From positions 1 to 14,642 of the forward strand of contig JALUCS010000059.1 of assembly GCA_027050205.1 (NCBI GenBank): a stretch of 14,642 nucleotides of DNA, given 5' to 3'. Below are positions 1 through 13,759 of the stretch, in pieces. This DNA comes from a candidate division WOR-3 bacterium. GTDB lineage: Bacteria > Hydrothermota > Hydrothermia > LBFQ01. The position numbers and the translations under genes were made by a program. Every line of letters starts with the position of its first letter. Position 1 is the first letter of the stretch. The notes under the pieces were generated by a model. It saw only the letters and a program-made list of their open reading frames with translations, was not told the origin of the DNA and did not search any database.

Positions 1-2
1 GT

Positions 3-563
3 GGTCTTACGGATAGAGACAGGGAAGCTGTTCTGAAGAGGTCCCTCCTTAGGGGCCACTTCCTCCTCTCCTCCGGTCTCCACAGCGAGTTCTACTTTGA
101 GAAGTTCAGGGTGTTAGAGGACCCGGCCCTGTTGAGGCTCTTCTCAAGGGACCTCGCCCGTTTCTTCCGGAGGTTCGGGCCGGACAGGGTGGCCGGTCCC
201 TTCACGGGTGGGGCCATACTCGCCTACGAGGTCGCCCGCGTGATGGGGATAAGGGCGGCCTACGCCGAGAAGGGGGAAGGGGGGAGGGTATTCCGCAGGG
301 GGTTCGTCCTCTCCGGTGAGAGGGTGGTGGTGGTGGACGACGACCTCACGACGGGGAGGTCCGTGATGGGGACGGTTAAGGCGGTGGAGGGGGCGGGGGG
401 TGAGGTGGTGGCCGTGGGGGTGATGGTGAAGAGGGGGGAGTACTCCGGTCCCTACCCCTTCCACTACGTGCTGGAGTTGGACTTCCCCACGTACAGGCCG
501 GAGGAGTGTCCCCTTTGCGCCTCCGGACTCCCCCTGACGTCGCCGGGGAGGGGTGGGGTATGA
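3..563 (+). CDS. pyrE: Orotate phosphoribosyltransferase (5'-truncated by window edge)
   Basis: The frame of ORF 111..563 is open back to position 3 (GLTDRDREAVLKRSLLRGHFLLSSGLHSEFYFEKF...), giving the PyrE N-terminal GHFxLSSGxHS motif. PRPP-binding loop VVVVDDDLTTGRS and C-terminal YRPEECPLC...PG tail as in a PyrE subfamily. Confidence 0.93.
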   Translation, partial: GLTDRDREAVLKRSLLRGHFLLSSGLHSEFYFEKFRVLEDPALLRLFSRDLARFFRRFGPDRVAGPFTGGAILAYEVARVMGIRAAYAEKGEGGRVFRRGFVLSGERVVVVDDDLTTGRSVMGTVKAVEGAGGEVVAVGVMVKRGEYSGPYPFHYVLELDFPTYRPEECPLCASGLPLTSPGRGGV

Positions 564-572
564 TCTCCCGCT

Positions 573-578
573 TAGAAT
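573..578 (+). promoter_or_regulatory. Putative -10 box (TAGAAT) of leaderless transcript
   Basis: TAGAAT 8 nt before ATG 587; the same arrangement recurs at 8 other sites in the window. Confidence 0.6.
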
Positions 579-586
579 AGGGGGCG

Positions 587-2674
587 ATGTTCCTACTGCT
601 CCTGTCCTATAAGGTGGAGTTCCGGATAACCGGCGAGGCCGGTCAGCCCCTTGAGGACGCCTTCATATACGTAAAGGAGCTGGGGGTGAGGGCATACACG
701 GACAGGAGCGGTAAAGCCCACCTGAACCTCAAGGGAGGGGAGTACCACGTCCTCGTCCAGGCCCTTGGCTACAGGGTGGGGAGGTTCTCCCTGAAGGTGG
801 GGAGGGATACGACGGTCATATACACCCTGAAGCCTTTGACCTTCATCCTCGGTGAGGTGGAGGTCTCCCCCAAGACCCGGAGCGCCTACGAGGCCTCGGA
901 GCCGAGGTTCCTTGAGGCCATGCCCTTCATCGGCGACCAGGACGTTGGCTACTTCATATCCGTCGCCCCCGGCGTCGTCCCTGTCTACGGGCTGGCTTAC
1001 TTCTCCGTCCGCGGCTCCTCCCCCTTTGAGAACCTCATAACCTACGACGGCATCCCCCTCTTCAACGCCTTCAGCTACTACGGGATGTACACCCCCATAA
1101 ACGTGGATATAGTGAGCAAGGTCCGGTTCCTGCGGGGGGCCTTTACGCCGGAGGTGGGGAACCTGTCGGGCGCCCTGATAGACTTTGAGAGTGCGGAGCC
1201 GGACTCCTTCTCGGCTATCTTCCGCCTCAGCCGTACCAACAGCGGCGTCGCCGTCCGGGGTAAGGGGTACGTCCTCTCCGGCAGGGTTGGCCTCTTCGCC
1301 CCCCTCAAGGGGATAAACATCCTCGGAACCGTCACGGGGGACGTCTCTGGTAAGTTCTCCTTCGGCAACTCCCTGAAGGGGCTCTCCTTCTCCTTCGTGG
1401 CTAACCGGGCCGTCAACTCCTACAAGAACGCCTACAGGGGCCTCTTCTACACCTCCTCCATCTTCAACGGCGGGGCAGCCCTCCGGGGGAGGTACGCCAC
1501 GGGCCGCGCCTTCATCAAGCCCGGCCTGATATACTCCACCTCCCTCTTCGCCAGTGAGGACCTCTCCTACCGCCTCCCCTACGTGACCGACTACTACATT
1601 TTCAACGCCCACAGCAGGTACGAGGTCGTCCGGGGGTACCTGAACGTGGACGCCGGCAGCGTTATAGCAGGGACGGAGATACAGGCCATAAACTCCAACA
1701 TCTACGGCACCGCCCTTGAGATGAACGACACCCTGATAGCCATATACCTCCTGCAACACGTCTATCCTACGAAGGTCTTCTGGGGGAACTACGCCAAATA
1801 TCACTACGAGGACGAGCATACCCTCGCCGAGGTGGGGGCGAGGGCCGATTACTTCCCCGGCATCGGCTTCCGCCTATCCCCCTCCGGCTTCTACAAGTAC
1901 TACCCCAACACCCGGTGGGCCTTCAAGGTGCAGGGGGGGCTGTACAGGCAGTTCTTTACCTCCATCTTCGCCTTCCCTCCGGACGTCTTCTACTACGTAC
2001 CCGTCAGCAGGTCGGAGATAAAATCCTACCAGGTCCTCGTCGGGGCGGAGCGCACCTTCCCGTGGGGAATATCGGAGGTTACCTTCTTCGGTAAGTACTA
2101 CCCAACCTTTACGTACATGACGACGAGGCTTGAGGAGAGGGTGGGCCAGCTTCAAGCCTTCGGGATGGACCTGTGGGTCCGGAAGGAGAGTAAGGTACCC
2201 CTGCCCATAACGGCGGACGTCTCCCTAACCTTAATGAACTCCCGGATAAGGTACGAGGGGGATACGGTCTGGTACCCCACCCCGTGGGACGTGAACGCCA
2301 CCCTGAATACGACCGTCTTCGGATACATCAGGAAGGGGGAGTGGGAGGTGGTGGTGGGAAGCAACGTAGCCTTCTACTACGGACGCCCCTTCCGCGGGAT
2401 AATAAGCCACTGGAGGGACCCCTTCCGGGGGGAGCAGTTCATCCTTGACAGCACCCACGCCCTCCGCATGCCCCCCTACGCGCGGGTGGACGTATTCTGG
2501 AGGTCCCCCATCCCCTTCAAGCTCGGCCCCTTCTCTCTTGACATCTCCTTCTCCGTCATAAACCTCTTCCCAAGGAAGGACGTGACCTTTGACCCCACCA
2601 ACCCCGACGCCGACCTCGCCAACCTGACGGCCTCCTACCCGATATCCTCAATAGTATTGCGGGCGGTCTATTGA
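587..2674 (+). CDS. TonB-dependent receptor-like outer-membrane protein (carboxypeptidase-regulatory-like N-domain, plug, beta-barrel)
   Basis: N-terminal PLEDAFIYV..TDRSG..L..GEY...ALGY (CarboxypepD_reg-like); plug-like APGVV...SVRGS...NLITYDGIP...RGAF; amphipathic beta-strands; C-terminal aromatic residue (LRAVY) typical of BAM substrates. Confidence 0.82.
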   Translation: MFLLLLSYKVEFRITGEAGQPLEDAFIYVKELGVRAYTDRSGKAHLNLKGGEYHVLVQALGYRVGRFSLKVGRDTTVIYTLKPLTFILGEVEVSPKTRSAYEASEPRFLEAMPFIGDQDVGYFISVAPGVVPVYGLAYFSVRGSSPFENLITYDGIPLFNAFSYYGMYTPINVDIVSKVRFLRGAFTPEVGNLSGALIDFESAEPDSFSAIFRLSRTNSGVAVRGKGYVLSGRVGLFAPLKGINILGTVTGDVSGKFSFGNSLKGLSFSFVANRAVNSYKNAYRGLFYTSSIFNGGAALRGRYATGRAFIKPGLIYSTSLFASEDLSYRLPYVTDYYIFNAHSRYEVVRGYLNVDAGSVIAGTEIQAINSNIYGTALEMNDTLIAIYLLQHVYPTKVFWGNYAKYHYEDEHTLAEVGARADYFPGIGFRLSPSGFYKYYPNTRWAFKVQGGLYRQFFTSIFAFPPDVFYYVPVSRSEIKSYQVLVGAERTFPWGISEVTFFGKYYPTFTYMTTRLEERVGQLQAFGMDLWVRKESKVPLPITADVSLTLMNSRIRYEGDTVWYPTPWDVNATLNTTVFGYIRKGEWEVVVGSNVAFYYGRPFRGIISHWRDPFRGEQFILDSTHALRMPPYARVDVFWRSPIPFKLGPFSLDISFSVINLFPRKDVTFDPTNPDADLANLTASYPISSIVLRAVY

Positions 2675-2678
2675 CCTT

Positions 2679-3477
2679 ATGGAAGAGGTCCTGCACTCCC
2701 TGAACCTGAAGGAGGAGAAAGTCGTAAAGGTGGCGGCTTTTAAGGGGAGGTGGTGGGTGATGGGTGAGGAGAATGGGAGATGGTTCCTCGTAGTTGATGG
2801 CAGGAGGTGGGGGCCGTACCGGGACGTATCGGCCCCGGTATTCTCCGAAGACGCCTCAATCTGGGCCTTCAGCTACAGGAGAGACGAGGGGTACTACGTC
2901 GTCTTGAACGGGGAGACCTTCGGACCTTACGAAGACGTACCCTATTACTCGCCGGCCCTTTCCCACGACGGCTCCGTCCGGGTGGTCGTAGGGAAGGAGG
3001 GGGGATGGGTACGTGGTTATAGCCAACGGTGAGAGGATGGGTCCCTTTGAGAAGGTCTGGCCCCCGTACTTCGCCGGGGAGATGCGGGGCTTCACGTACT
3101 ACTCCGATGGGATGGCCTACGTCCGTCTGAAGGATAGGATCCTGGGGCCTTACGAGAGGGTGGCCTACGGCTCCCCCTTCTTCTCCGGGGACGGCAAGAG
3201 GTGGGCGGTGGCCTACGCCGAATCCGGCCGGTGGTACGTCTCGGTGAACGGGGAGGCCTTCGGCCCGTACGAGGACGCCTGGCCGGTGTCCTTCTCCCCG
3301 GACGGGAGGCACTGGTGGATGAAGTACCCGTACGAGGGGAGGTGGTACCTGGTCCTGGATGGGGAGAGGTTCGGCCCCTTCCGGGAGTACTACCACATCT
3401 CCGGCCCATCCTTTGAGGACGGCCCCGTCTTCTATGCCTACGGGGATGGGAAGGTGGTCAGGATATCCGCCGTATAA
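2679..3477 (+). pseudogene. Beta-propeller (WD40/PD40-like) repeat protein split by a +1 frameshift near 2999-3009 (ORFs 2679..3032 and 3013..3477)
   Basis: Both ORFs carry the same ~37-aa repeat (W/Y-x-V-x-x-N/D-G-x-x-x-G-P-Y/F...FSxDG). Removing one G from GAGGGGGGATGGGTAC joins them into one ~265-aa protein with six GP[YF] repeats. A sequencing error is possible. Confidence 0.7.
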
Positions 3478-3478
3478 T
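3473..3478 (+). promoter_or_regulatory. -10 box (TATAAT) for the tRNA, overlapping the upstream stop codon
   Basis: Perfect TATAAT containing the TAA stop (3475-3477), 9 nt before tRNA position 1. Confidence 0.6.
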
Positions 3479-3487
3479 TTCCACTCC

Positions 3488-3561
<74 letters not shown>

Positions 3562-3637
3562 CCTTTTTTTGTGGGAACGGTTCTCGGAGCAACATCGTGT
3601 TCTTAGATAGGCGGAAGGGGAGGCGGTAGGCCGTCCT

Positions 3638-3643
3638 TACAAT
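3638..3643 (+). promoter_or_regulatory. Putative -10 box (TACAAT) of leaderless mdh
   Basis: 8 nt before ATG 3652; the spacer ATTCCCTC has no SD. Confidence 0.6.
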
Positions 3644-3651
3644 ATTCCCTC

Positions 3652-4581
3652 ATGAAGAAGGTAGCGATAATCGGCGCAGGAAACGTTGGAAGCGAGGCTG
3701 CAAGGTACCTCGCCCAGAAGGGCTTAGCAGAGGTCGTCCTCCTTGACATCGTTGAGGGTATAGCCAAGGGCAAGGCCCTTGACATATGGCACTCCGGCCC
3801 CATCATCCCCTCCACGACCGTTATATACGGCACCAAGGACTACGAGCTGATAAAGGACAGCGACGTCGTCATCATCACCGCTGGCCGCCCTCGCAAGCCC
3901 GGTATGAGCCGGGAGGAACTCTTGAAGGTGAACTTTGACATCGTCTCCTCCGTCGCCGAGAACGTAAAGAAGTACGCCCCCAACGCCGTCGTGATAGTCG
4001 TGACCAACCCCTTGGACGCTATGGTCTATACCGCCTACAGGGTGACGGGCTTCCCGAAGAAGAGGGTTATGGGGATGGCGGGCCTGCTTGACTCCTCCCG
4101 CTTCGCCGCCTTCATAGCGATGGAGCTGGGCGTATCCGCCGCCGACGTCAGGGCTATGGTCCTCGGAACCCACGGCGACCTGATGGTACCCGTTATGAGG
4201 TTCACGTCCATAAACGGTCTCCCCGCCACTATGTTCATAAGCGAGGAGAGGATGAAGGAGATCATCAAGCGCACACAGAAGGCGGGCGGTGAGATAGTGG
4301 GGCTGATGGGTACCAGCGCCTGGTTCGCACCCGGTGACGCCGCCGGTCTGATGGCCGAGGCCGTAATACTGGACACCAACCGCGTCCTCCCCGCCTCCGT
4401 CTATCTGGAGGGTGAGTACGGCATAAACGGCGTCTTCGTAGGCGTACCCATCGTCCTCGGTGAGGGCGGTATAAAGAAGATCCTTGAGGTAGAACTCACC
4501 GACGAGGAGCTGGAGGCCCTCAAGCGTAGCGCCGAGCATGTGAAGAAACTCCAGGAGCAGGTGGACGCCCTGCTCGGATAG
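3652..4581 (+). CDS. mdh: Malate dehydrogenase (LDH-like tetrameric type)
   Basis: Rossmann motif IIGAGNVG; substrate loop TAGRPRKPGMSR with the MDH-specific Arg; VTNPLD, LDSSRF and GTHGD catalytic motifs. Confidence 0.95.
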   Translation: MKKVAIIGAGNVGSEAARYLAQKGLAEVVLLDIVEGIAKGKALDIWHSGPIIPSTTVIYGTKDYELIKDSDVVIITAGRPRKPGMSREELLKVNFDIVSSVAENVKKYAPNAVVIVVTNPLDAMVYTAYRVTGFPKKRVMGMAGLLDSSRFAAFIAMELGVSAADVRAMVLGTHGDLMVPVMRFTSINGLPATMFISEERMKEIIKRTQKAGGEIVGLMGTSAWFAPGDAAGLMAEAVILDTNRVLPASVYLEGEYGINGVFVGVPIVLGEGGIKKILEVELTDEELEALKRSAEHVKKLQEQVDALLG

Positions 4582-4601
4582 GGATCCAACGCACCGGAGT
4601 T

Positions 4602-4628
4602 GGGGGGCCGGAAGGCCCCCCTTTTTTT
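4602..4628 (+). terminator. Rho-independent terminator after mdh
   Basis: GGGGGGCC-GGAA-GGCCCCCC (8-bp GC stem, GNRA loop) followed by TTTTTTT. Confidence 0.9.
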
Positions 4629-4632
4629 GGCT

Positions 4633-4638
4633 TAGAAT
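4633..4638 (+). promoter_or_regulatory. Putative -10 box (TAGAAT)
   Basis: Immediately after the mdh terminator and 7 nt before GTG 4646. Confidence 0.6.
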
Positions 4639-4645
4639 ATCCAAC

Positions 4646-5194
4646 GTGGATAGGAGGTTCCTGCTCCTTACCGTCGGCCTGCCGGGGGTGGGGAAGACGA
4701 CCCTCGTCAGGCACCTGTTGAGGCTGATAGACGGTGCCAAGGCGTACGAGTCGGACGTGGTGAGGAAGCGTCTACTGGGCTACCCTCCCGACCGTCCCCT
4801 ACCCCGCCACCTATACAACCCACGGGTGAACGGTAAGACCTTCGCCTTCATAAGGGAGGAGGCGAGGAGGGACCTGAAGGATGGCCTTAGCGTCATCGTC
4901 GACGCCACCTTTACCCGCAGGGAGTACAGGAGGCCCTTTCTGGATATGGGCCTGGAACTGGGGGTCCCGACCGTCGGGATACACGTCTTCGCCGAGGAGG
5001 AGGTGGTGTTGAGGAGACTGCAGAGGGCGAGGGGGGTTTCGGACGCCAACGTGGAGGTGTATCTGCTCCTTAAGAGGACAGCCGAACTTCCCCCCGACGA
5101 GATGCCCCACATCTCCGTGGACGGTACGGAGGAGCCTTTCACCGCCGCCGTAAAGGTCCTGACCTGGCTCAAGGGTCTCCTTAGGGCGCTCTGA
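4646..5194 (+). CDS. AAA_33-family P-loop kinase/ATP-binding protein
   Basis: Walker A GLPGVGKTT, SDVVRKRL, VIVDATF, lid RLQRA..SDA; typical of the gluconate/polynucleotide-kinase-like AAA_33 domain. Confidence 0.85.
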   Translation: MDRRFLLLTVGLPGVGKTTLVRHLLRLIDGAKAYESDVVRKRLLGYPPDRPLPRHLYNPRVNGKTFAFIREEARRDLKDGLSVIVDATFTRREYRRPFLDMGLELGVPTVGIHVFAEEEVVLRRLQRARGVSDANVEVYLLLKRTAELPPDEMPHISVDGTEEPFTAAVKVLTWLKGLLRAL

Positions 5195-5195
5195 C

Positions 5196-5807
5196 TTGCT
5201 AACGAAACAGCACGAGATAGTCCTTCAAGCCTTTGCCCCCTTCCCCTCCGCCGATCCTAACCTTGAGCAGTATCCCACACCTCCGGGGGTGGCCGTGAGG
5301 TTCCTGAACATAGCGGCGGGGGACGTAAGGGGTAAGAGGGTGGTGGACCTCGGATGCGGTACGGGGATCCTCACGGTGGGGGCGGCTCTACTCGGAGCCT
5401 CCATCTCCATCGGGGTGGATGTGGACGCCGAGGTCCTTAAGGTAGCCCGGAGAAACCTGCGTCTGGCCTCGGAGGTCTTCGGGAACTTGAACGTGGCCTT
5501 CGTCCGGGGCCGCATCCCGGACTTCCACTTCCGGGCGGATACGGTGGTTATGAACCCCCCTTTCGGGATGCGGAGGAAGGGGAGCGACGCCCTCTTCCTA
5601 ACTACGGCCATGGCCGGGGCGAGGGTGGTCTGGACCCTACTGGGGAGGAGGAGCGACCCCTTCGTAGCCCGGTTGGCGGAGGGGATGGGCTTCAGATGGG
5701 AGAGGGTGGCGGATATACCCTTCCCTCTGACGAGGAGCATGCCCTTCCACAGGAGGGACAGGGTCAAGATAGAGGTCAGCGTATATAGGTTGGAGAGACG
5801 ACTTTAA
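5196..5807 (+). CDS. METTL5-family (COG2263-like) SAM-dependent N6-adenine RNA methyltransferase
   Basis: LEQYPTP N-terminal signature, motif I VVDLGCGTG, motif IV MNPPFG, C-terminal PFH; TTG start separated by 1 nt from the upstream TGA. Confidence 0.87.
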   Translation: MLTKQHEIVLQAFAPFPSADPNLEQYPTPPGVAVRFLNIAAGDVRGKRVVDLGCGTGILTVGAALLGASISIGVDVDAEVLKVARRNLRLASEVFGNLNVAFVRGRIPDFHFRADTVVMNPPFGMRRKGSDALFLTTAMAGARVVWTLLGRRSDPFVARLAEGMGFRWERVADIPFPLTRSMPFHRRDRVKIEVSVYRLERRL

Positions 5808-5811
5808 TCCG

Positions 5812-5817
5812 TAGAAT
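5812..5817 (+). promoter_or_regulatory. Putative -10 box (TAGAAT)
   Basis: 8 nt before TTG 5826; the spacer has no SD. Confidence 0.5.
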
Positions 5818-5825
5818 ACTCACTC

Positions 5826-7202
5826 TTGAAGGGTCCCCTCTTCTGGACGCTCGCCTCCCGCGTCGGGATACAGGCCTTCGCCCTACTGCGGACGGTCGTC
5901 CTCGCCCGTCTCCTATCCCCTTACGATTTCGGGGTAGCCACCTCCGCCTTCATAGCGTACCAGATGTTGGATATGATGACCTTTACGGGTTTTACGACGG
6001 CCTTGACCGCCCAGAAGGGGAACTTCCGGGAGGGGTACCCCACCCTCTGGTGGAGTACGGTTATAAGGGGCCTCCTCCTCGCCGCCCTCCTCTACGTCTC
6101 CTCCGACGCCATCGGCAGGTTCTTCAACGACCCCAACGTGGCCTACACGAGCCGTTTGGTGGCCCTGGCCTTCGTACCCTACTCCCTCGTCAATCCCGTA
6201 ATGGTGGTGGAGGCCTCCCGCTTCTTCCGGTTTGAGAAGATATTCGTCGTTGAGATAGGGGAGGCGGCGGCGTACTTCCTGACCGCCCTCCTCCTCGCCC
6301 AGCACCTCCGGGACTACAGGGCGTTGGTCTTCGGCTTCATAGCCGCCGGTTTTACCAAGTTCGTCCTCTCCTACGTCGTCAGGCCCTACCTCCCCTCCCT
6401 CTCCTTCAGCCTCAAGTGGCTCAAGCGGATGTTCTCCTTCGGCATATGGGTGAACTTCACCTTCGTCCTGAACTTCGTCCTGATGTACATGGACAGGACG
6501 GTTGTCGGTAAGTTCGCTGGCCAGTCCGCCCTCGGTCACTACTCCAACGCTCAGAAGTTCGCCTTCCTCGCCCCTCCCCAGATAAGCGCTATGCTCTCCC
6601 GCGTCCTCTTCCCCTACTTCGTCACCGCACCGGATGAGGATGCTCGGAGGGTCTTCGGCATATACATGCGAACCGTTCTGCTCATAGGCTCCGTCTTCTT
6701 CGCCCCGATGTTCTTCTGGAATAAGGGGCTGATAGACCTCCTCCTAGGCCCCGGATGGGAGTACGCCGCCCGGATACTCCGTCCCCTATCCCTCGCTGGC
6801 CTCCTCGCCATGGTCTCCAACACCATCAGCCCCATCTCGCAGGGGAGGGGGATGCCCCGCCTGGACGTTATGAGGCTGGCCGTCATCCCGGTCGTCTTCG
6901 GTGCCGTGGCCTCACTCAACCTTAGGGACGGGGTCTGGATAGCCTGGAGCCTCGCGGTGGGCTACGCCTCCTCCCTCCCCCTATCCTTCTGGGGGATAAG
7001 CCTCTCCGGCGTTCCCCTACCCTACGTCCTCCGTCCTCTGATACCCTTCACCCTGGCCCTCCTGCTCTCCTCCCCCCTATACCTCCTATCCCCCATTCTC
7101 CCCGCCGTCCTCCTGCCCATCTTAACCCTCGCCCTTGAGGTAATGCTCTTCAGAAGTGTCGGGGCGGTTGAGTTCCTGAAGGTGAAGGTGCCGAAGGCTT
7201 AG
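5826..7202 (+). CDS. Wzx/WzxC-like oligosaccharide flippase (MOP superfamily)
   Basis: LARLLSPYDFG, FSFG-W, DRTVVGKF...LGHYS, LLLGPGW motifs; many hydrophobic segments. Confidence 0.88.
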   Translation: MKGPLFWTLASRVGIQAFALLRTVVLARLLSPYDFGVATSAFIAYQMLDMMTFTGFTTALTAQKGNFREGYPTLWWSTVIRGLLLAALLYVSSDAIGRFFNDPNVAYTSRLVALAFVPYSLVNPVMVVEASRFFRFEKIFVVEIGEAAAYFLTALLLAQHLRDYRALVFGFIAAGFTKFVLSYVVRPYLPSLSFSLKWLKRMFSFGIWVNFTFVLNFVLMYMDRTVVGKFAGQSALGHYSNAQKFAFLAPPQISAMLSRVLFPYFVTAPDEDARRVFGIYMRTVLLIGSVFFAPMFFWNKGLIDLLLGPGWEYAARILRPLSLAGLLAMVSNTISPISQGRGMPRLDVMRLAVIPVVFGAVASLNLRDGVWIAWSLAVGYASSLPLSFWGISLSGVPLPYVLRPLIPFTLALLLSSPLYLLSPILPAVLLPILTLALEVMLFRSVGAVEFLKVKVPKA

Positions 7203-7945
7203 AAGAGGACCACCCTGCCCTTCCTTAGGCGTCCCCTACGCCCCGTCCTTCGGCCGCTTACGTCGTAGGTCCCTCCCTCCGTTTCCCTCAAGGCTCTCCT
7301 TCTTTCTGCGACGTCAAGGGAGCGTAGGACCTTCCCCCTTCCGACGGGTACGGTGCCGGTGTAGGAGTAGGAGCCGTAGAAAACGGTGGTGGTCGTACTG
7401 TCCCACATTACCTTGGTTATGCCGAAGTTGGGTACGTAGTAGTAGGTGCGGTACTCCGTTATTAGGGTGGAGTCGGGGGAGAAGGTGGAGGTGGTTATCA
7501 TCTTGCTGTGGAGGACGAGCAGTACCTTTACGTTCCCGGTTAGGCCCCCCACTACGGCGTCGGTGCTTTCCACTACGGCCGTTGACGGGAGGTATACGAG
7601 GGTGTCGGCTACGCTGTCCATATCCACATCGGGGATAGGTACGGGGGTATTGAGGGGGATGATGCAGTCGTTCCAGGCCTCCCAGGTGTCCCCGACGTTG
7701 GCGTTGTAGCGGGCGAACCTGTGCTGGAGGTTGTGGTAGTAGTCGTTCCCGGCCCATACGAGGGAGGAGTCCCTTACGGTGTCCCGCATTACGGAGATCT
7801 TCACCAGCTTGCCGGAGAGGTCGGTACAGGAGCCGTACAGGGGGAGGGTGTAGGTGGCTTCTACGCTGTCCCTCTCCGGGTTTCCCGATGGGACGGTTAG
7901 GTAGTCCCAGAAGTTCCCGACGCTCAAACCGAGGTAGGCCAACAT
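7199..7945 (-). CDS. Secreted beta-rich hypothetical protein with short T9SS-like C-terminal tail
   Basis: Short hydrophobic N-terminus, Thr/Tyr/Val-rich body with YYVPNFGITK and a DVDMD loop, C-terminus DVAE...TYDVSGRR...KGRVVLF. Confidence 0.72.
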   Translation of the reverse strand: MLAYLGLSVGNFWDYLTVPSGNPERDSVEATYTLPLYGSCTDLSGKLVKISVMRDTVRDSSLVWAGNDYYHNLQHRFARYNANVGDTWEAWNDCIIPLNTPVPIPDVDMDSVADTLVYLPSTAVVESTDAVVGGLTGNVKVLLVLHSKMITTSTFSPDSTLITEYRTYYYVPNFGITKVMWDSTTTTVFYGSYSYTGTVPVGRGKVLRSLDVAERRRALRETEGGTYDVSGRRTGRRGRLRKGRVVLF

Positions 7946-7951
7946 AGGGCA

Positions 7952-7957
7952 ATTTTA
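7952..7957 (-). promoter_or_regulatory. Putative -10 box (TAAAAT, minus strand)
   Basis: 6 nt before the minus-strand ATG at 7945. Confidence 0.55.
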
Positions 7958-7964
7958 AGGCCGC

Positions 7965-9437
7965 TCACATAACCACCCGATGCACCTTTTGGCCAGTGCG
8001 GAGGAAGTAGACGCCCCTGCCGAGCTTGAGGGTGGTACCCCTCTCGGCTCTACCTTTCTGTAGGAGGGAGCCGTCAGCTCCGAATACGGCGTAATCCGTC
8101 GCCCTCGTGAAGGTTATCCGGCCGGAGCCTACTAGGAAGGGTTTCCCTTCTCCGTTCCCCTCATTTACGGCGAGGTCGTCGCCCCTGCCGTAGGGGCAGT
8201 TGTCGTCTATGACGGCTATCTGGGGTGGGCTTTCTCCGGTCAGGATCAGCTCAACGAAGCCGTCCCCATCGGCGTCGGCGACGGAGACGTTCCGGAGGTT
8301 CCCGACGGCATTCCCGTACCATATAGTACTGCCGTCGCTGGAGTTGAGTATATACACGTAGCCGTGGTAGGAGGCCGTGACCACTTCAAACCCCGGCGTT
8401 GAGATGTCCATATCGGCGAGGATCTCCCCCACGGGGTACTGCTGGGATAGGGAACGGCTCCACACTACCCCCCTGTCCGAGCCTCTGAACCTGTAGAGGT
8501 GGCCGAAGCGGTTCCCCTTAAAGACCTCCACGTGGCCATCGCCGTCCACGTCGTATATACCGGCCGTTGGAAAGGTGTAGGTGGCGGACGAGGTGAAGGG
8601 GGAGCCGCTCAACTCCGTACCGGAGGGGCCGTCTATGAAGTGAAACTTGGAACAGTTGGAGCCTATCACTACGTCCATATCCCCATCCTCGTCTATGTCC
8701 CCCACAGCCGGCGGGTTGGAGTAGGTGTTGCACCCGACGTCCAAGCTCCACTCTACGCTCCCCGTACATCCGTCCAGGGCGTAGACTCTGGTACCGCTAC
8801 CCCCGGCTATAACCTCCTTACAGGGGTCCCCGTCCAGTTGGGCGATGGCCGGGAAACTCCCGTCGCTGGCGTTTATGCTTCTGGACCACAGGATGGTGTT
8901 GGTGGAGGGGGTGTACGCGTAGATGTTTCCGTTGTCGCTCTGGACGATTATGTCAAGGAGGCCGTCGGCGTTCACGTCCCCTACGGAGGTGGAGGCGTCC
9001 GTACCCCCGATGTTCCGGGATACCTCAACCGTCCCCGTCGCCCCGTCAAGGACGAAGACGTCTCCGCTCCAAGTTGAGATGACGACCTCAAGGGCGCTAT
9101 CGTTGTCCATATCGGCTATGTTCGGGGTGTACTCCCCTGCCACGCTTCCGAGGTTCCGCGTCCATTCTAACGCCCCCGTCCTGCCGTCAAAGGCGTAGAT
9201 TATGTGATCGTAGGAGCCTACCACGACCTCCGGATTTCCGTCCCCGTCTATATCCGCCACTGTGGCTTGGGAGATTATCCAGTTCCCCGTTGTGTAGGTC
9301 CATACGGTGGTGGCCGAGCCGCAGTAGAAGTTCCCCCTCATAGTCTGCACGCCCGTGTGCTGGGCGTTTCCCTGATAGGTCTGCCAAGTGCCGTAGGCGA
9401 CGCTGTCGGGAAATCCTATCAGGTATATTACCAGCAT
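7965..9437 (-). CDS. FG-GAP/VCBS-repeat, PQQ-like beta-propeller protein with T9SS type A-like C-terminal domain
   Basis: Eight D-x-D-x-D-G-x-x-E/D-V/I-V/I-type repeats (ADIDGDGNPEVVVG, GDVNADGLLDII, GDIDEDGDMDVVIG, YDVDGDGHVEV, ADADGDGFVEL and others); WQTYQGNAQHTG N-terminus; C-terminal VFGADGS...GVYFLR...KVHRVV. Confidence 0.85.
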   Translation of the reverse strand: MLVIYLIGFPDSVAYGTWQTYQGNAQHTGVQTMRGNFYCGSATTVWTYTTGNWIISQATVADIDGDGNPEVVVGSYDHIIYAFDGRTGALEWTRNLGSVAGEYTPNIADMDNDSALEVVISTWSGDVFVLDGATGTVEVSRNIGGTDASTSVGDVNADGLLDIIVQSDNGNIYAYTPSTNTILWSRSINASDGSFPAIAQLDGDPCKEVIAGGSGTRVYALDGCTGSVEWSLDVGCNTYSNPPAVGDIDEDGDMDVVIGSNCSKFHFIDGPSGTELSGSPFTSSATYTFPTAGIYDVDGDGHVEVFKGNRFGHLYRFRGSDRGVVWSRSLSQQYPVGEILADMDISTPGFEVVTASYHGYVYILNSSDGSTIWYGNAVGNLRNVSVADADGDGFVELILTGESPPQIAVIDDNCPYGRGDDLAVNEGNGEGKPFLVGSGRITFTRATDYAVFGADGSLLQKGRAERGTTLKLGRGVYFLRTGQKVHRVVM

Positions 9438-9445
9438 AAGGCCAA

Positions 9446-9451
9446 ATTTTA
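9446..9451 (-). promoter_or_regulatory. Putative -10 box (TAAAAT, minus strand)
   Basis: 8 nt before the minus-strand ATG at 9437. Confidence 0.55.
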
Positions 9452-9708
9452 AGGGTGCGATGTGAGTGTTGGTTTGAGTATTCCAGAAAATGACGATTTT
9501 TCTGCATCACTTAGTATCTGACGAGGGTATCCACATCCGCGGTGATTTCAAAAATTGAAGTCCGGGTCTCAAGAATCCGCCACGGCGTTAAAGATTTTTA
9601 TTCCAACTTTAGGAAACGTTGAATGTTGTTAATGAGAACCGATTCAAAATTTTAAAATAGCGGAATTTTACGATGACCGTTAAGCGGCTATCACCTCATC
9701 CAATACGG

Positions 9709-11709
9709 TTATCCATTAAGTGGTACGTATCCCCCTACCTTCCGGACGTACTCCACGAAGTCCCTGTAGATGGGGTGGGTCCTTAGGGTCAAGGAGTCTC
9801 CGACGGTTATGAGCTTCCTCTTAGGCCGGGTTATGGCCACGTTCAGGCGGCGTACGTCGTTAAGGAAACCTATCTCCCCCCTCCGGTTGGACCTCACGAA
9901 GGATACCACTATGACCTCCTTCTCCCTTCCCTGAAACCCATCCACCGTCTTCACCTCCACCTCCTCCGGCACTCCCCCCTCGTAGAGCATCCTCCTTAAC
10001 AGGTCCACCTGATCGTCGTAGGGGGATATCACGCCAACGTCCGTAGGCTTCAGGCCGAGGTTCAGGAGGGCGCGGACGGCTTGGAAGACCACCCTCGCCT
10101 CCCCCTCGTTGTAGTAGGACGTGGAACCCCTCCGCTGTTTCTCCGGGGAACTGCCAAGGGTATCGGCGAAGACGACCGGCTTGAGGGGGTGGAGTAGGAC
10201 GGACAGGGGAGGTTGGAGGGCGGAGACCTTCTCCTCGGTTATCCCCAGATCTGCGAGGGTGTGGTGGGCGACGCTCTCGTGGGCTACGAGCTTTCCATCG
10301 TAGAAGGTACGGTTGGGGAACTCCATTATGACCTCGTGCATCCGGTACTGTATCCGCAGCATCTCCTTGATCCCGTCCCCGTAGACCTCAAGGAGGCGCT
10401 CAAAGAGGGTCCTCTGCAGGTGCTTTGCGGCCTCCTCGCTAAGGATGGTGGGAGGGAGCTGCTTGTGGTCCCCCGCCATCACCCACCTACTACCCTTGAC
10501 CATCGGGATCAGGCAGGAAGGCTCGGTGGCCTGGGTCGCCTCGTCTATGAAGACGACGTCAAACGTAAAGTGGGCGAGGACCTCGCTCCCGGCGGAGGAG
10601 TTGGTGGAGCATACGACCTCTGCGTTCCTAAGGACCCTCTCTACAGCTATGGCCTCGTACTTCTTGGCCCGGTCCATGAGGGCGTTTATCCGTTGTTGGA
10701 GTTTTATCCAAGCCGCCATCCTCCTTATGGCGTTGGGGTGGACCCCCCGGACGGGGGTACCCGTCTCGGCATACCGCATTATCTCCTCGTCGGAGAGTCC
10801 CCTCCTCCACCTCGGTGTCGGGACGAGGTACCCCTTCTGCTCCTCCCGGATCCGGTCTATCTCCTCGTAAATCTCCAACGCCCTTTTGTAGTCGGGGTCG
10901 TACTGGAGGAGGTAGTCCAAAGAGTGTTCAACCACCGCCTTGGTTATACGGGATGGGTTCCCTACCCTGACGACCTTTACGCCGTAGGAGGCGAGCCTCT
11001 CTACCATATTGTCCGTCGCTACGTTGGAGTCGGCCGTTGCCAGGACCTTCATCCCCTTCCGGACGTACTGGTAGATGGCCTCAACTACGGTCGTGGTCTT
11101 TCCCGTCCCCGGCGGCCCGTGTATCAGGAAGACGGGCGATGAGGCGACGGCCTTGCCTACCGCCCTCCTCTGGCTCTCGTTCAGTAGGGGGTTGCCGGGG
11201 GTTACCTCCGACTCCCTTATTTCGGGTTTGGACTTGCCAAGGAGGAGGTTGAGGAGGACGGGGTTGTCCTTCAGCCTCTGTAAGGCGTCCAACATCCTCT
11301 GGAAGGTTATGTCGTTGGCGAAGAGGTCCAGCCTGACACCTTTGCCGAGGGCGTAGGCCGGAGGGTGCTTGTCGTACGCTACGGTTAGCGAAAAACGGGT
11401 CTTCTCAACGACCGTCCCCTGAATCTCGTTCCCCTTGGGCCTCCCCCTGCTCGCTATTACGAGGTCCCCAACCTTTATCTCGGTGTCGGGCAATCCCCCC
11501 TGACGGACGTACTTGACGAGGTACGTACCCCCCAACCCCCTACCCACCAACTTCCCCCGTAGGTTCAAAATCGCCCTCCCGAGCTTCTCCCTCTTCCAAC
11601 CGGGGAGCCTCCTTATCTCCTGCCTGTGGAACTCCATCTCCGCCTCCCTCTCCAAGAGGACGAGGCGGCGAAAGTGAGTGTAGTACTCCCTGTAGGACCG
11701 AAATCGCAT
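9709..11709 (-). CDS. IGHMBP2/Upf1-like superfamily 1B helicase
   Basis: LNESQ Q-motif, GPPGTGKTT, SNVATDN, IDEATQ, AGDHKQLPP, QYRM, ISPY, TVDGFQGREKE, RRLNVAITR; N-terminal EREAE...RE.LGRA domain of the IGHMBP2 family. Confidence 0.93.
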   Translation of the reverse strand: MRFRSYREYYTHFRRLVLLEREAEMEFHRQEIRRLPGWKREKLGRAILNLRGKLVGRGLGGTYLVKYVRQGGLPDTEIKVGDLVIASRGRPKGNEIQGTVVEKTRFSLTVAYDKHPPAYALGKGVRLDLFANDITFQRMLDALQRLKDNPVLLNLLLGKSKPEIRESEVTPGNPLLNESQRRAVGKAVASSPVFLIHGPPGTGKTTTVVEAIYQYVRKGMKVLATADSNVATDNMVERLASYGVKVVRVGNPSRITKAVVEHSLDYLLQYDPDYKRALEIYEEIDRIREEQKGYLVPTPRWRRGLSDEEIMRYAETGTPVRGVHPNAIRRMAAWIKLQQRINALMDRAKKYEAIAVERVLRNAEVVCSTNSSAGSEVLAHFTFDVVFIDEATQATEPSCLIPMVKGSRWVMAGDHKQLPPTILSEEAAKHLQRTLFERLLEVYGDGIKEMLRIQYRMHEVIMEFPNRTFYDGKLVAHESVAHHTLADLGITEEKVSALQPPLSVLLHPLKPVVFADTLGSSPEKQRRGSTSYYNEGEARVVFQAVRALLNLGLKPTDVGVISPYDDQVDLLRRMLYEGGVPEEVEVKTVDGFQGREKEVIVVSFVRSNRRGEIGFLNDVRRLNVAITRPKRKLITVGDSLTLRTHPIYRDFVEYVRKVGGYVPLNG

Positions 11710-11757
11710 CCGGTGATTCTAAACCATGGGGATGCTTCGGGGCTATAATCCCCACCC
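11710..11757. promoter_or_regulatory. 48-bp divergent promoter region with back-to-back -10 boxes
   Basis: Minus-strand TAGAAT (11716-11721) 6 nt before helicase ATG 11709; plus-strand TATAAT (11744-11749) 8 nt before ATG 11758. Confidence 0.65.
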
Positions 11758-12090
11758 ATGAAAGGCGGAAAGGTCCTTGCTATAGTACGTCCCCAGTTCG
11801 CCCCCGGTTTCCTGCTCGCCGGTGTGGAGGTCTTTGAGACGGACGACCCCAAGAAGGCCGAGAGAAAGGCCAGGGAACTCCTCAACGACCCCCAAGACTA
11901 CTATCTGGTCGTGGTGGACGAGTATCTCGCCGAGCAGTTCTCAACCCCCACCCTCTCCCGTATGTTCTCCAGCACCGACCCCGTCTTCATCAACGTTGGC
12001 CTCACGGGGACGAGTGACGACGACATAATAAGGGAGATACAGCGGCTCGCCCAAGAGTCCCTCGGCTACGCCATAAGGATAGACGCATGA
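11758..12090 (+). CDS. V/A-type ATP synthase subunit F
   Basis: GFLLAGV motif near the N-terminus, DYYLVVVDE, PVFINV, C-terminal ..SLGY; 110 aa matches the ATP-synt_F family. Confidence 0.8.
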   Translation: MKGGKVLAIVRPQFAPGFLLAGVEVFETDDPKKAERKARELLNDPQDYYLVVVDEYLAEQFSTPTLSRMFSSTDPVFINVGLTGTSDDDIIREIQRLAQESLGYAIRIDA

Positions 12091-12842
12091 GGCGGCTCTT
12101 ACCTTTTGCCCTTCTCCTCGTCTCCTGCGGTCAGGGGATGCTTCCCTCCAAGCCGAGGATCTCCGGGGTATGGGGGAACCCCACGGGCGACAGGCTTGAG
12201 ATAAACTGGTACTACCTTGAGGGGGCTGACAGGTACGAGGTGTGGGGTATAGACTCTACGGGGGAGGCCAAGGGTTTGTATTCGGGGACGGATACGACGG
12301 TCTCCATCGGGGAGAGGTACCCGTACTACCTCGTCGTGGCCTACGCCCCATCGGACATGCAGTCCAGCGATACCGTAAAGGTGGCCCCTATCGGGGGAGA
12401 GTTCCTCCTAAGGTCTTACGGTTCCGGTTTCCGGAGTGCGATATGCTACAAGCCGGACACCACCAAGGACGCTTGGATCTTCCCGTGCGACCCCGAAAAT
12501 TCCCAAATGCAGCCCAACCTCCTCCTCATCTTGGACAGCCTGACCCTCGTCTCCCCTCTCAAGGATACGGCTAAGTTCGGCTCCCTCCACATCCTCTACT
12601 CTCCCGGCCCATCCGATATGGCTCCCCTACCCCCCTCCGGGTACGCTGACACCTTCCCCGTCGCCGTTGGCGAAACGGTGGCCGTATGGATAGACAGGGG
12701 TATAGCCGACACCTTTGACCTCACGGACAACGTCCTAAGGGTCGTATTGGACAGCGTATATCTCGGAGACGGTAGCAGGGACTCCATAAGGGTGAAGTTG
12801 GGCCTTAGGTACCAACTTGTGCCGAGGTTGAGATGGTACTGA
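12087..12842 (+). CDS. Hypothetical lipoprotein with Fn3-like N-terminal region
   Basis: MRRLLPFALLLVS-C lipobox-type signal; P..P.I....LEINW..GADRYEV...YYLVVAY resembles Fn3; ATGA overlap with the upstream stop. Confidence 0.72.
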   Translation: MRRLLPFALLLVSCGQGMLPSKPRISGVWGNPTGDRLEINWYYLEGADRYEVWGIDSTGEAKGLYSGTDTTVSIGERYPYYLVVAYAPSDMQSSDTVKVAPIGGEFLLRSYGSGFRSAICYKPDTTKDAWIFPCDPENSQMQPNLLLILDSLTLVSPLKDTAKFGSLHILYSPGPSDMAPLPPSGYADTFPVAVGETVAVWIDRGIADTFDLTDNVLRVVLDSVYLGDGSRDSIRVKLGLRYQLVPRLRWY

Positions 12843-13759
12843 CCCTACTTCTGGCCCAGACCTACAAGGTGGCCTTCATAGATATGGAGAGGGTCTATTC
12901 GGAGTACATAGACCTCCGGGATGCGAGGGAGCAGATCCTCCGTTACAAGGCCACCCTTGAGATAAGGCGGGATTCGGTCCAGCATCGTCTGGACTCCCTT
13001 CAGGAATCCCTGATGAAGCAGTGGCCTATGCTCACGGACGCCGAGAAGGTCCTAAGGTGGCAGGAGATTGAGAACACCAGAAAACGGCTGGACAGCTTGA
13101 ACCGGGCCATAATACGGCAGGTGGAGGCCAAGTCCAAGGAGGTGATGGCGCCCTACCTGAAGAAGGTCAGGGAGACGGCCAAGAAGATTGCCAAGGATAT
13201 GGGGTATGATGCCGTTGTGGATATAAGCGTCGCCCTATGGGTAGACCCCCAACACGACATAACCGGCCTCGTCCTTGACGAGTTGAACAGGGCGCACAAG
13301 GCGGCTGGCCTCGTCCTAAAGAAGGTGATAGTCTTCCCGTTCAGGGAGGAGGATACCCGCGTCCACTCGTGGGGCCTTGGGGACACGGCCCAGGTGGCCA
13401 TATACCAAGACCTCAACGGCAACCCCAAACTTGACCTGATGAACCCAGATCGGGTGAACGAAGTCCTACGCTCAAGGGGGTACAGTTGGCAGAGGTTGGA
13501 CGAGAGGGTGGTCTTCTCCGTAGCCCAAGCCTTCGCTCCTGACATCTACATCTTCGGTAAGGTGAAGTCCAAATCGGAGGACAGGGTGGATGTCTCGGTG
13601 GCCATATACGACGGTAGGACCGGAGAGGTGGTAAAGGTAGGAGATGCGGAACTGAAGGAGAGCGTGAGCGACATCCAGAGGGGAACGGAGTTCAGCAACA
13701 CCGTCACCCAAATGGCCCGCCGTCTCATAAACCGGTACCTATCCCAGTTCAGCAGGTGA
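12833..13759 (+). CDS. OmpH/Skp periplasmic chaperone fused to a CsgG/TolB-N/LpoB-like alpha/beta domain
   Basis: KVAFIDMERV start, long coiled coil, IAKDMGYDAVVD...DITGLVL end of OmpH (~aa 9-153). Then KVIVFPF...DIYIFGKV...VAIYDGRTGEVV, the pattern of the CsgG/TolB-N-like fold. Confidence 0.8.
   Translation: MVLTLLLAQTYKVAFIDMERVYSEYIDLRDAREQILRYKATLEIRRDSVQHRLDSLQESLMKQWPMLTDAEKVLRWQEIENTRKRLDSLNRAIIRQVEAKSKEVMAPYLKKVRETAKKIAKDMGYDAVVDISVALWVDPQHDITGLVLDELNRAHKAAGLVLKKVIVFPFREEDTRVHSWGLGDTAQVAIYQDLNGNPKLDLMNPDRVNEVLRSRGYSWQRLDERVVFSVAQAFAPDIYIFGKVKSKSEDRVDVSVAIYDGRTGEVVKVGDAELKESVSDIQRGTEFSNTVTQMARRLINRYLSQFSR

Follow-up and report, generated by a model that had tools for sequence, protein, structure and literature searches.

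The window considered here is the whole analysed stretch of 14,642 nucleotides (nt) of a candidate division WOR-3 bacterium (contig JALUCS010000059.1, assembly GCA_027050205.1). Four of its genes, named below by the position of the start codon (587, 7945, 9437 and 12833), encode proteins that begin with a stub of seven or eight uncharged residues where an export signal would be expected. This stub, its distribution and its probable role as a minimal export signal are the subject of this report. The features concerned are as follows.

573..578, forward strand: -10-like box TAGAAT, 8 nt before the ATG of gene 587; seen in the sequence and in accord with a genome-wide peak at 6-9 nt; likely a leaderless start.
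587..607, forward strand: short leader MFLLLLS of a TonB-dependent receptor-like protein (gene 587-2674); from sequence and Pfam, with the same leader type in 5/5 orthologues.
7922..7945, reverse strand: short leader MLAYLGLS of a 248-residue protein of no known family (gene 7199-7945); kept in 4 orthologues, export being presumed only.
9414..9437, reverse strand: short leader MLVIYLIG; its protein (gene 7965-9437) combines FG-GAP repeats with a type IX secretion-like tail; from sequence, Pfam and a hidden Markov model (HMM) of the tail.
12833..12856, forward strand: short leader MVLTLLLA, followed by Gln9, in a protein with an OmpH/Skp domain (gene 12833-13759); from sequence, Pfam and 12/12 own-family genomes.
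12087..12128, forward strand: for contrast, a lipoprotein signal with a basic n-region (MRR) and lipobox Cys14 (gene 12087-12842).

Short leaders in the window

The earlier note on this DNA had claimed that the four N-termini are short and uncharged and that their starts cannot be extended; translation bears out both statements. With its upstream frame the N-terminus of gene 587 is MFLLLLSYKVEF, where the third codon upstream is a stop; that of gene 7945 is MLAYLGLSVGNF, where the stop is the fourth codon. The start at 9437 (MLVIYLIGFPD) is preceded by 23 open codons, none of them ATG, GTG or TTG, and that at 12833 (MVLTLLLAQTYKVAFID) by 8 open codons, again with no start codon. Residues 2-6 of all four leaders include no K, R, D or E; a lipobox Cys is absent from all four, and they contain no Arg and no twin-arginine (Tat) motif. 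The lipoprotein of gene 12087 (MRRLLPFALLLVSC) keeps a normal MRR n-region, as had also been stated.

The product of gene 587 has CarboxypepD_reg and Plug domains (Pfam). A paralogue of the 9437 protein with a classical signal aligns with it at an offset of 16 residues. The product of gene 7945 is the weakest case for export among the four, because it has no Pfam match and lies outside the tail-HMM matches. A -10-like TAAAAT stands 6 nt upstream of the 7945 start and 8 nt upstream of the 9437 start; the start of gene 12833 overlaps the end of the upstream gene and has no -10 box. The OmpH domain of the 12833 protein covers residues 12-151 (Pfam). It is fused to a C-terminal part of 150 residues without a Pfam match, and the class orthologues are of similar length.

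Longer true N-termini in homologues, or assembly errors upstream, had been named in the earlier note as what would count against it. In all 12 own-family genomes the OmpH orthologue begins with Met and seven uncharged residues followed by Gln9; residue 8 is always Ala, Ser or Thr, and the upstream sequence is variable and closed by a stop. OmpH of the other families of the class, which is likely Hydrothermia, mostly has a classical signal, and in one of these families the mature part begins at the aligned Gln. The short leader is likewise kept at 587 (all five genomes) and at 7945 (four of five genomes; the search of the fifth yielded just a distant paralogue). An in-frame stop lies 3-26 codons upstream of the short start in the orthologues of these three proteins; for 9437, an orthologue covering the N-terminus was not found in 5 genomes. 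At the sequence level the short starts are real and are not assembly errors, because orthologues of three window proteins keep them in other genomes. Upstream extension and assembly error were rejected on this conservation together with the frame analysis.

Extent in the genome and the putative cut site

The genome (2.05 Mb, 93.5% complete) was analysed with a purpose-written gene caller, which gave 1836 genes, 1737 of them scored. An independent set of exported proteins was defined by the tail of type IX secretion: an HMM, seeded with 43 TIGR04183 matches, found 124 genes, of which 118 were scored. At the called start, 80 of these have a short leader, 16 a classical signal, 1 a lipoprotein signal and 21 something else. 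When every in-frame start was tested, 84 of the 118 tail reading frames offered only short or n-less leaders (those without the basic n-region), 11 only classical ones, 16 both and 7 neither. Short leaders are commoner than chance, because internal Met codons of secreted proteins pass the same rule in only 10/670 cases. K, R, D and E are absent from residues 2-6 in 80/118 tail proteins, which accordingly lack a basic n-region; the median end of the hydrophobic run is residue 6 (at 5-8 in 68/80), short of the classical total of 15-30 residues, of which the h-region takes 7-15. This 2-Mb genome outside Bacteroidota has some 120 proteins with a type IX tail, together with an SprA-like gene and a PorV-like gene.

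Short leaders on proteins without membrane helices number 235 among the 1737 scored genes. Of the 155 soluble short-leader proteins without a tail, 105 were scanned for families, chosen by the regions that cover most of them. A family was assigned to 58, which by our own reading comprise 22 hallmark envelope proteins, 7 cytoplasmic ones and 29 that are not decisive. The envelope families include SprA, BamA, two other Omp85 proteins, LptD, TolC, LolA, SurA and a PorV-like protein, and further two OmpA proteins, a TonB-dependent receptor, two amidases, a DsbA-like protein, SPOR and others. The control was the first 60 of 100 'other' proteins taken at random from these regions; with the threshold tightened to 1e-15 (1e-7 for the short-leader proteins), 44 of them received a family, with no hallmark envelope family and one ambiguous case. 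The leader is thus met on exported rather than cytoplasmic proteins (22 envelope against 7 cytoplasmic; controls 0/44, at these unequal thresholds). These assignments show the short leaders to be found on, and restricted to, families predicted to be exported. The seven cytoplasmic proteins (reverse gyrase, IspDF, SurE, DUF503, RuvC, PTPS and lumazine synthase) are false positives whose first beta-strand mimics the short-leader rule. The reverse gyrase gene points to a thermophile.

In the genome, 80 lipoproteins have a basic n-region (MRR/MKR), as the lipoprotein rule itself required Lys or Arg, and a separate search found a lipobox-like Cys in just 5/235 short leaders. The stub is also present before the membrane domains of YajC (L064:1958-2278), PntB (L230:7242-8672) and a CitMHS_2 transporter (L213:2787-4172), the Pfam matches of which begin at residues 18-22. 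A YidD-family protein (L247:11917-12258, contig C87) begins with a short hydrophobic stub as well, although YidD is not known to be exported.

Among the 235 short leaders, 55 have Gln at residues 7-11, where 20.4 are expected (p=9e-12), with a peak at residue 8; the control gives 67/981 against 73 expected. The residue before this Gln is Ser or Ala in 36/55 (14% in mature regions), and position -3 relative to the Gln-anchored site is Leu in 31/55. The stub ends, then, in a cleavage-like motif of a large hydrophobic residue, a hydrophobic residue, Ser/Ala and often Gln. Among the 16 classical tail signals, many have the same type of ending, L-x-A/G followed by Gln. In paralogue pairs, that of the 9437 protein included, the stub aligns with the end of the classical signal, the offsets being mostly 9-16 residues. 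LepB is present in a single copy in this genome, and its catalytic Ser and Lys motifs align with those of solved enzymes. An altered LepB was considered and rejected, as no change was seen in the aligned active-site stretches.

Leaderless starts, SRP and the translocon

The earlier note proposed that the short signals may be linked to leaderless translation. Of the 1737 called starts, 521 have a -10-like box (TAnAAT) 6-9 nt ahead of them, where positions farther away have 2-9 each, and some 30-45% of the genes in this genome look leaderless; the leaderless mRNAs of Deinococcus deserti reportedly resemble this arrangement. In the window, such boxes precede the starts at 587, 3652, 4646, 5826, 7945, 9437, 11709 and 11758 by 6-8 nt. 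A box so close to the ATG leaves little room for a longer N-terminal reading. As to the link, a count biased by the gene caller favoured it (66/80 short against 8/16 classical, p=0.009). Once the choice of start is unbiased, the box is found on 53/84 short and 6/11 classical tail genes and is not commoner on the short ones; OmpH, SprA, SurA and LptD have short leaders without a box. The box is common and not specific, and leaderless translation as a cause was dropped.

The SRP (signal recognition particle) components were not found in this class: Ffh in 0/30 class genomes against 14/14 controls, and SRP RNA in 0/5 against 12/14. The SRP GTPase domain (Ffh/FtsY) was not found in 57 of the 151 genomes of the phylum, which belong to 14 whole families, some of them outside this class, and the other 94 have it. 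What an SRP-dependent signal presupposes (Ffh, FtsY and SRP RNA) is hence not seen here. YidC and LspA are present in this genome; YidC was found in three of five genomes checked and not in G017 and G027. An fmt-like match occurs in 40/41 genomes (in this genome below the curated cut-off) and def is present in this genome; with both genes there, a loss of formylation that would leave a charged N-terminus is unsupported. The PurN-like formyltransferase match (C97:82282-82599) lies in an open frame of 690-810 codons in the own family and of about 190-235 in other families; the longer frame suggests a fusion in the own family.

SecY was found in 30/30 genomes, and SecA in 28/30, that is, in 28 of 29 relatives, congeners among them. 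The SecY gene of this genome is at C95:13048-14271 (L088). In the E. coli numbering, counted from the alignment, Arg stands at the position of S405 in transmembrane helix (TM) 10 in 21/21 class genomes and in 0/24 other readable WOR-3 genomes; a quick SecY tree served for orientation only. The own family has in addition Met275 (TM7), Ala358, Ala187, a changed C4 loop and RAG in place of the conserved RPG loop. Five of the six pore-ring positions are kept in this genome, and Ala187 also occurs in the SecY of PDB 3DL8. The earlier suggestion of a modified Sec/SRP/signal peptidase is thus supported in part: SecY has lineage-specific changes, none of which tracks the trait; SRP is not found rather than modified, and LepB is canonical.

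Relatives were sampled at 30-160 kb per genome and, being kin, are not independent, so that the counts across them speak of presence and not of rates. The BamA leader is n-less in 9/22 SRP-bearing WOR-3 genomes, 8 of which have two SRP-domain matches, and in one SRP-bearing genome (G055) it is as short as here. In SRP-bearing G145, LptD and an Omp85 protein have n-less leaders that cannot be extended. Conversely, SRP-less G029 has classical signals on 7/8 tail proteins. Arg405 is found in none of the aligned SRP-bearing genomes (G050 and G055 lie outside that alignment). SRP loss as a requirement is ruled out by the n-less leaders of SRP-bearing genomes. Within the genomes sampled, short signals show no coupling to SRP loss, and none of Arg405, SRP loss and leaderless starts is required. 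Short or n-less leaders are scattered across the phylum. The idea of a minimal export signal without an n-region, widely used in this lineage while lipoproteins keep the classical form, is supported; the trait is not confined to the lineage.

Readings of the stub

The classical Sec signal cut by signal peptidase I has n-, h- and c-regions and 15-30 residues (PMC12190922). The WOR-3 stub is like it in being N-terminal and Leu-rich, in standing on outer-membrane, periplasmic and type IX cargo, in often ending in a small residue and in sitting where orthologues or paralogues have a classical signal; SecY and LepB are present as well. Unlike it, the stub has about 7-8 residues, no Lys/Arg n-region, merged h- and c-regions, a large residue at -3 and a length too short for a membrane span. 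By n-region and length it falls outside the classical type, and yet by position, distribution and cut-site motif it appears to work like one.

We believe that the stub is probably a minimal Sec signal, cut by ordinary signal peptidase I after residue 7 or 8, because Gln is enriched after it, mostly behind Ser or Ala, and because LepB is canonical. A Met and some six hydrophobic residues, with no charged n-region, would be delivered by SecA to SecYEG; this targeting would be post-translational and, we presume, helped by hydrophobic patches in the mature chain. Since seven residues are too short to span the membrane as the loop model needs, the stub would be placed in the lateral gate or in the outer leaflet, close to the active site of LepB; its N-terminus may still carry the formyl group and so be uncharged. 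The formyl group is retained on some membrane proteins, in an SRP-dependent manner there (PMC5454389); SRP was not found in this class. The signal peptidase would then make the cut. As to lipoproteins, they must stay anchored for lipidation; since Lgt and LspA require an anchor that spans the membrane, the n-region would be kept in them. A single permissive translocon is likely to read both signal types, because the two coexist and are exchanged between paralogues and between orthologues.

Several points weigh against such a minimal signal. We infer export and cleavage of the short-leader proteins from their families and motifs, and the classes rest on our own gene caller and hand-made rules. 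As many as 180/235 short leaders have no Gln at residues 7-11, residue 7 is small in about half, and no single cut rule is visible. Position -3 is mostly Leu, Phe or Ile, where the textbook residue is Ala (AxA). SecA was not found by profile or tblastn in this 93.5% complete assembly, which is likely an assembly gap, and no change of SecY, SecA (22 proteins aligned) or LepB was seen that tracks the trait. In textbook signals the h-region alone takes up 7-15 residues, and export was reduced with 5 Leu in one model system (PMC12190922).

It is tempting to go further and propose a second class of export signal, in which a (formyl)Met and six hydrophobic residues enter SecY head-first and not looped, without charge or SRP, are clipped in the outer leaflet, and also deliver the tails of N-out membrane proteins. 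We hold this only tentatively and regard it as possible though doubtful. If true, this would make the stub the shortest export signal of bacteria that is cleavable, and one overlooked by standard predictors.

The main rival to cleavage is that the stub targets the protein to Sec and stays on it, passing head-first like the short N-tails of N-out membrane proteins. The same stub before the first membrane domain of YajC, PntB and the CitMHS_2 transporter fits such retention, as do the lack of a clear AxA-like site in most leaders and the start of the first domain of TonB-dependent receptors at about residue 8. However, an excess of Gln preceded by Ser or Ala is expected from cleavage and not from retention, and in OmpH the small residue and Gln9 are invariant in 12/12 genomes and align with the Gln after classical signals. 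We therefore think retention rather unlikely.

There is a small chance that a separate, undescribed targeting factor or route has replaced SRP and reads the (formyl)Met-hydrophobic stub. The 57/151 genomes of the phylum without a detected Ffh/FtsY, among them every class genome tested, together with SRP RNA in 0/5 and the SecY Arg in 21/21 class genomes against 0/24 others, would suit it. It does not suit the n-less BamA leaders in 9/22 SRP-bearing genomes that lack this Arg, LptD and Omp85 in G145, or the 7/8 classical tail proteins of SRP-less G029; no candidate factor was identified.

Export through Sec with removal of the stub by another protease, for example rhomboid, LepB being unable to reach it, has a slim chance of being correct. 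Rhomboids prefer large hydrophobic residues before a small one at the cut, which is the pattern at the putative site, and the gene is present in 5/5 genomes checked; but it is also present in 14/14 control genomes, and the L-x-small-Gln ending shared with the classical signals points to one enzyme.

Finally, it is barely credible that the true starts lie upstream (through assembly error, a non-standard start codon or a frameshift) and give normal signals: in its favour, 72 of the 235 genes with a short leader are at the edge of a contig or have an in-frame start of some kind upstream, the rule let through 7 cytoplasmic proteins, and the start positions are read from sequence. Against it, 163/235 have no upstream in-frame ATG, GTG or TTG, 122 have a stop within 10 codons, the same start is kept across independent genomes despite varying upstream sequence, and many of these ATGs are preceded at 6-9 nt by a -10-like box.

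The minimal Sec signal may be compared with three known cases. In E. coli, prlA mutants (of SecY) export proteins whose signal is defective or absent (PMC7530735), and the prlA sites L407 and I408 are close to the Arg405 position (PMC11494458). The class SecY resembles them in Arg405 of TM10, near L407/I408, and in Ala at pore-ring position 187 in some families; unlike prlA, the WOR-3 trait is natural and genome-wide, and across WOR-3 the SecY changes are neither needed nor sufficient. In Bacteroidetes, signals are of normal length. As under the Bacteroidetes Q-rule (PMC5837995), Gln is enriched after the predicted signal peptidase I site, here of both short and classical signals; unlike under that rule, it is present in about a quarter of the short leaders, and the glutaminyl cyclase PF05096 was found in 0/5 genomes, the search not extending to the animal-type enzyme. 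SRP loss with no Ffh/FtsY and a diverged SecY is known in some Elusimicrobia (PMC7987157). This class is similar in having no detected Ffh/FtsY and a changed SecY, and differs in that SRP loss and short signals are uncoupled; the available part of PMC7987157 does not mention shortened signals.

If the stub acts as proposed, the natural lower limit for a bacterial export signal would be about a third of the textbook length, without positive charge. The positive charge of a signal peptide is thought to orient it. The essential proteins BamA, LptD, SurA and LolA carry the stub, which must therefore allow their export. Paralogues that bear short and classical signals within a single genome offer natural swap pairs for the requirements of SecA and SecY. 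Given 235/1737 genes with the pattern, WOR-3 secretomes are likely under-called by standard tools. The trait was not found in print in the literature searched (largely open-access, supplements aside), and the words 'signal' and 'secretion' have zero occurrences in the available main text of the WOR-3 papers PMC12285271 and PMC12542636. A cultured WOR-3 strain, sy37, exists according to the same two papers. We believe the new contribution to be that SRP loss, Arg405 and leaderless starts appear dispensable for the trait.

A few observations concern the neighbouring genes of the window. At its start (about 1-563, forward strand) a phosphoribosyltransferase frame is open from the called GTG at 111 back to the contig start; the gene is probably truncated at this edge of the contig. 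In 2679-3477 (forward strand) the overlapping reading frames 2679-3032 and 3013-3477 contain the same short R-x-GP-Y/F repeats in different frames; they may be one gene split by a frameshift and have a weak GYF_2 match. A lone ATP-synt_F gene (V/A-type subunit F, 11758-12090, forward strand) heads the lipoprotein-OmpH run and is divergent from a UPF1-like helicase gene (9709-11709).

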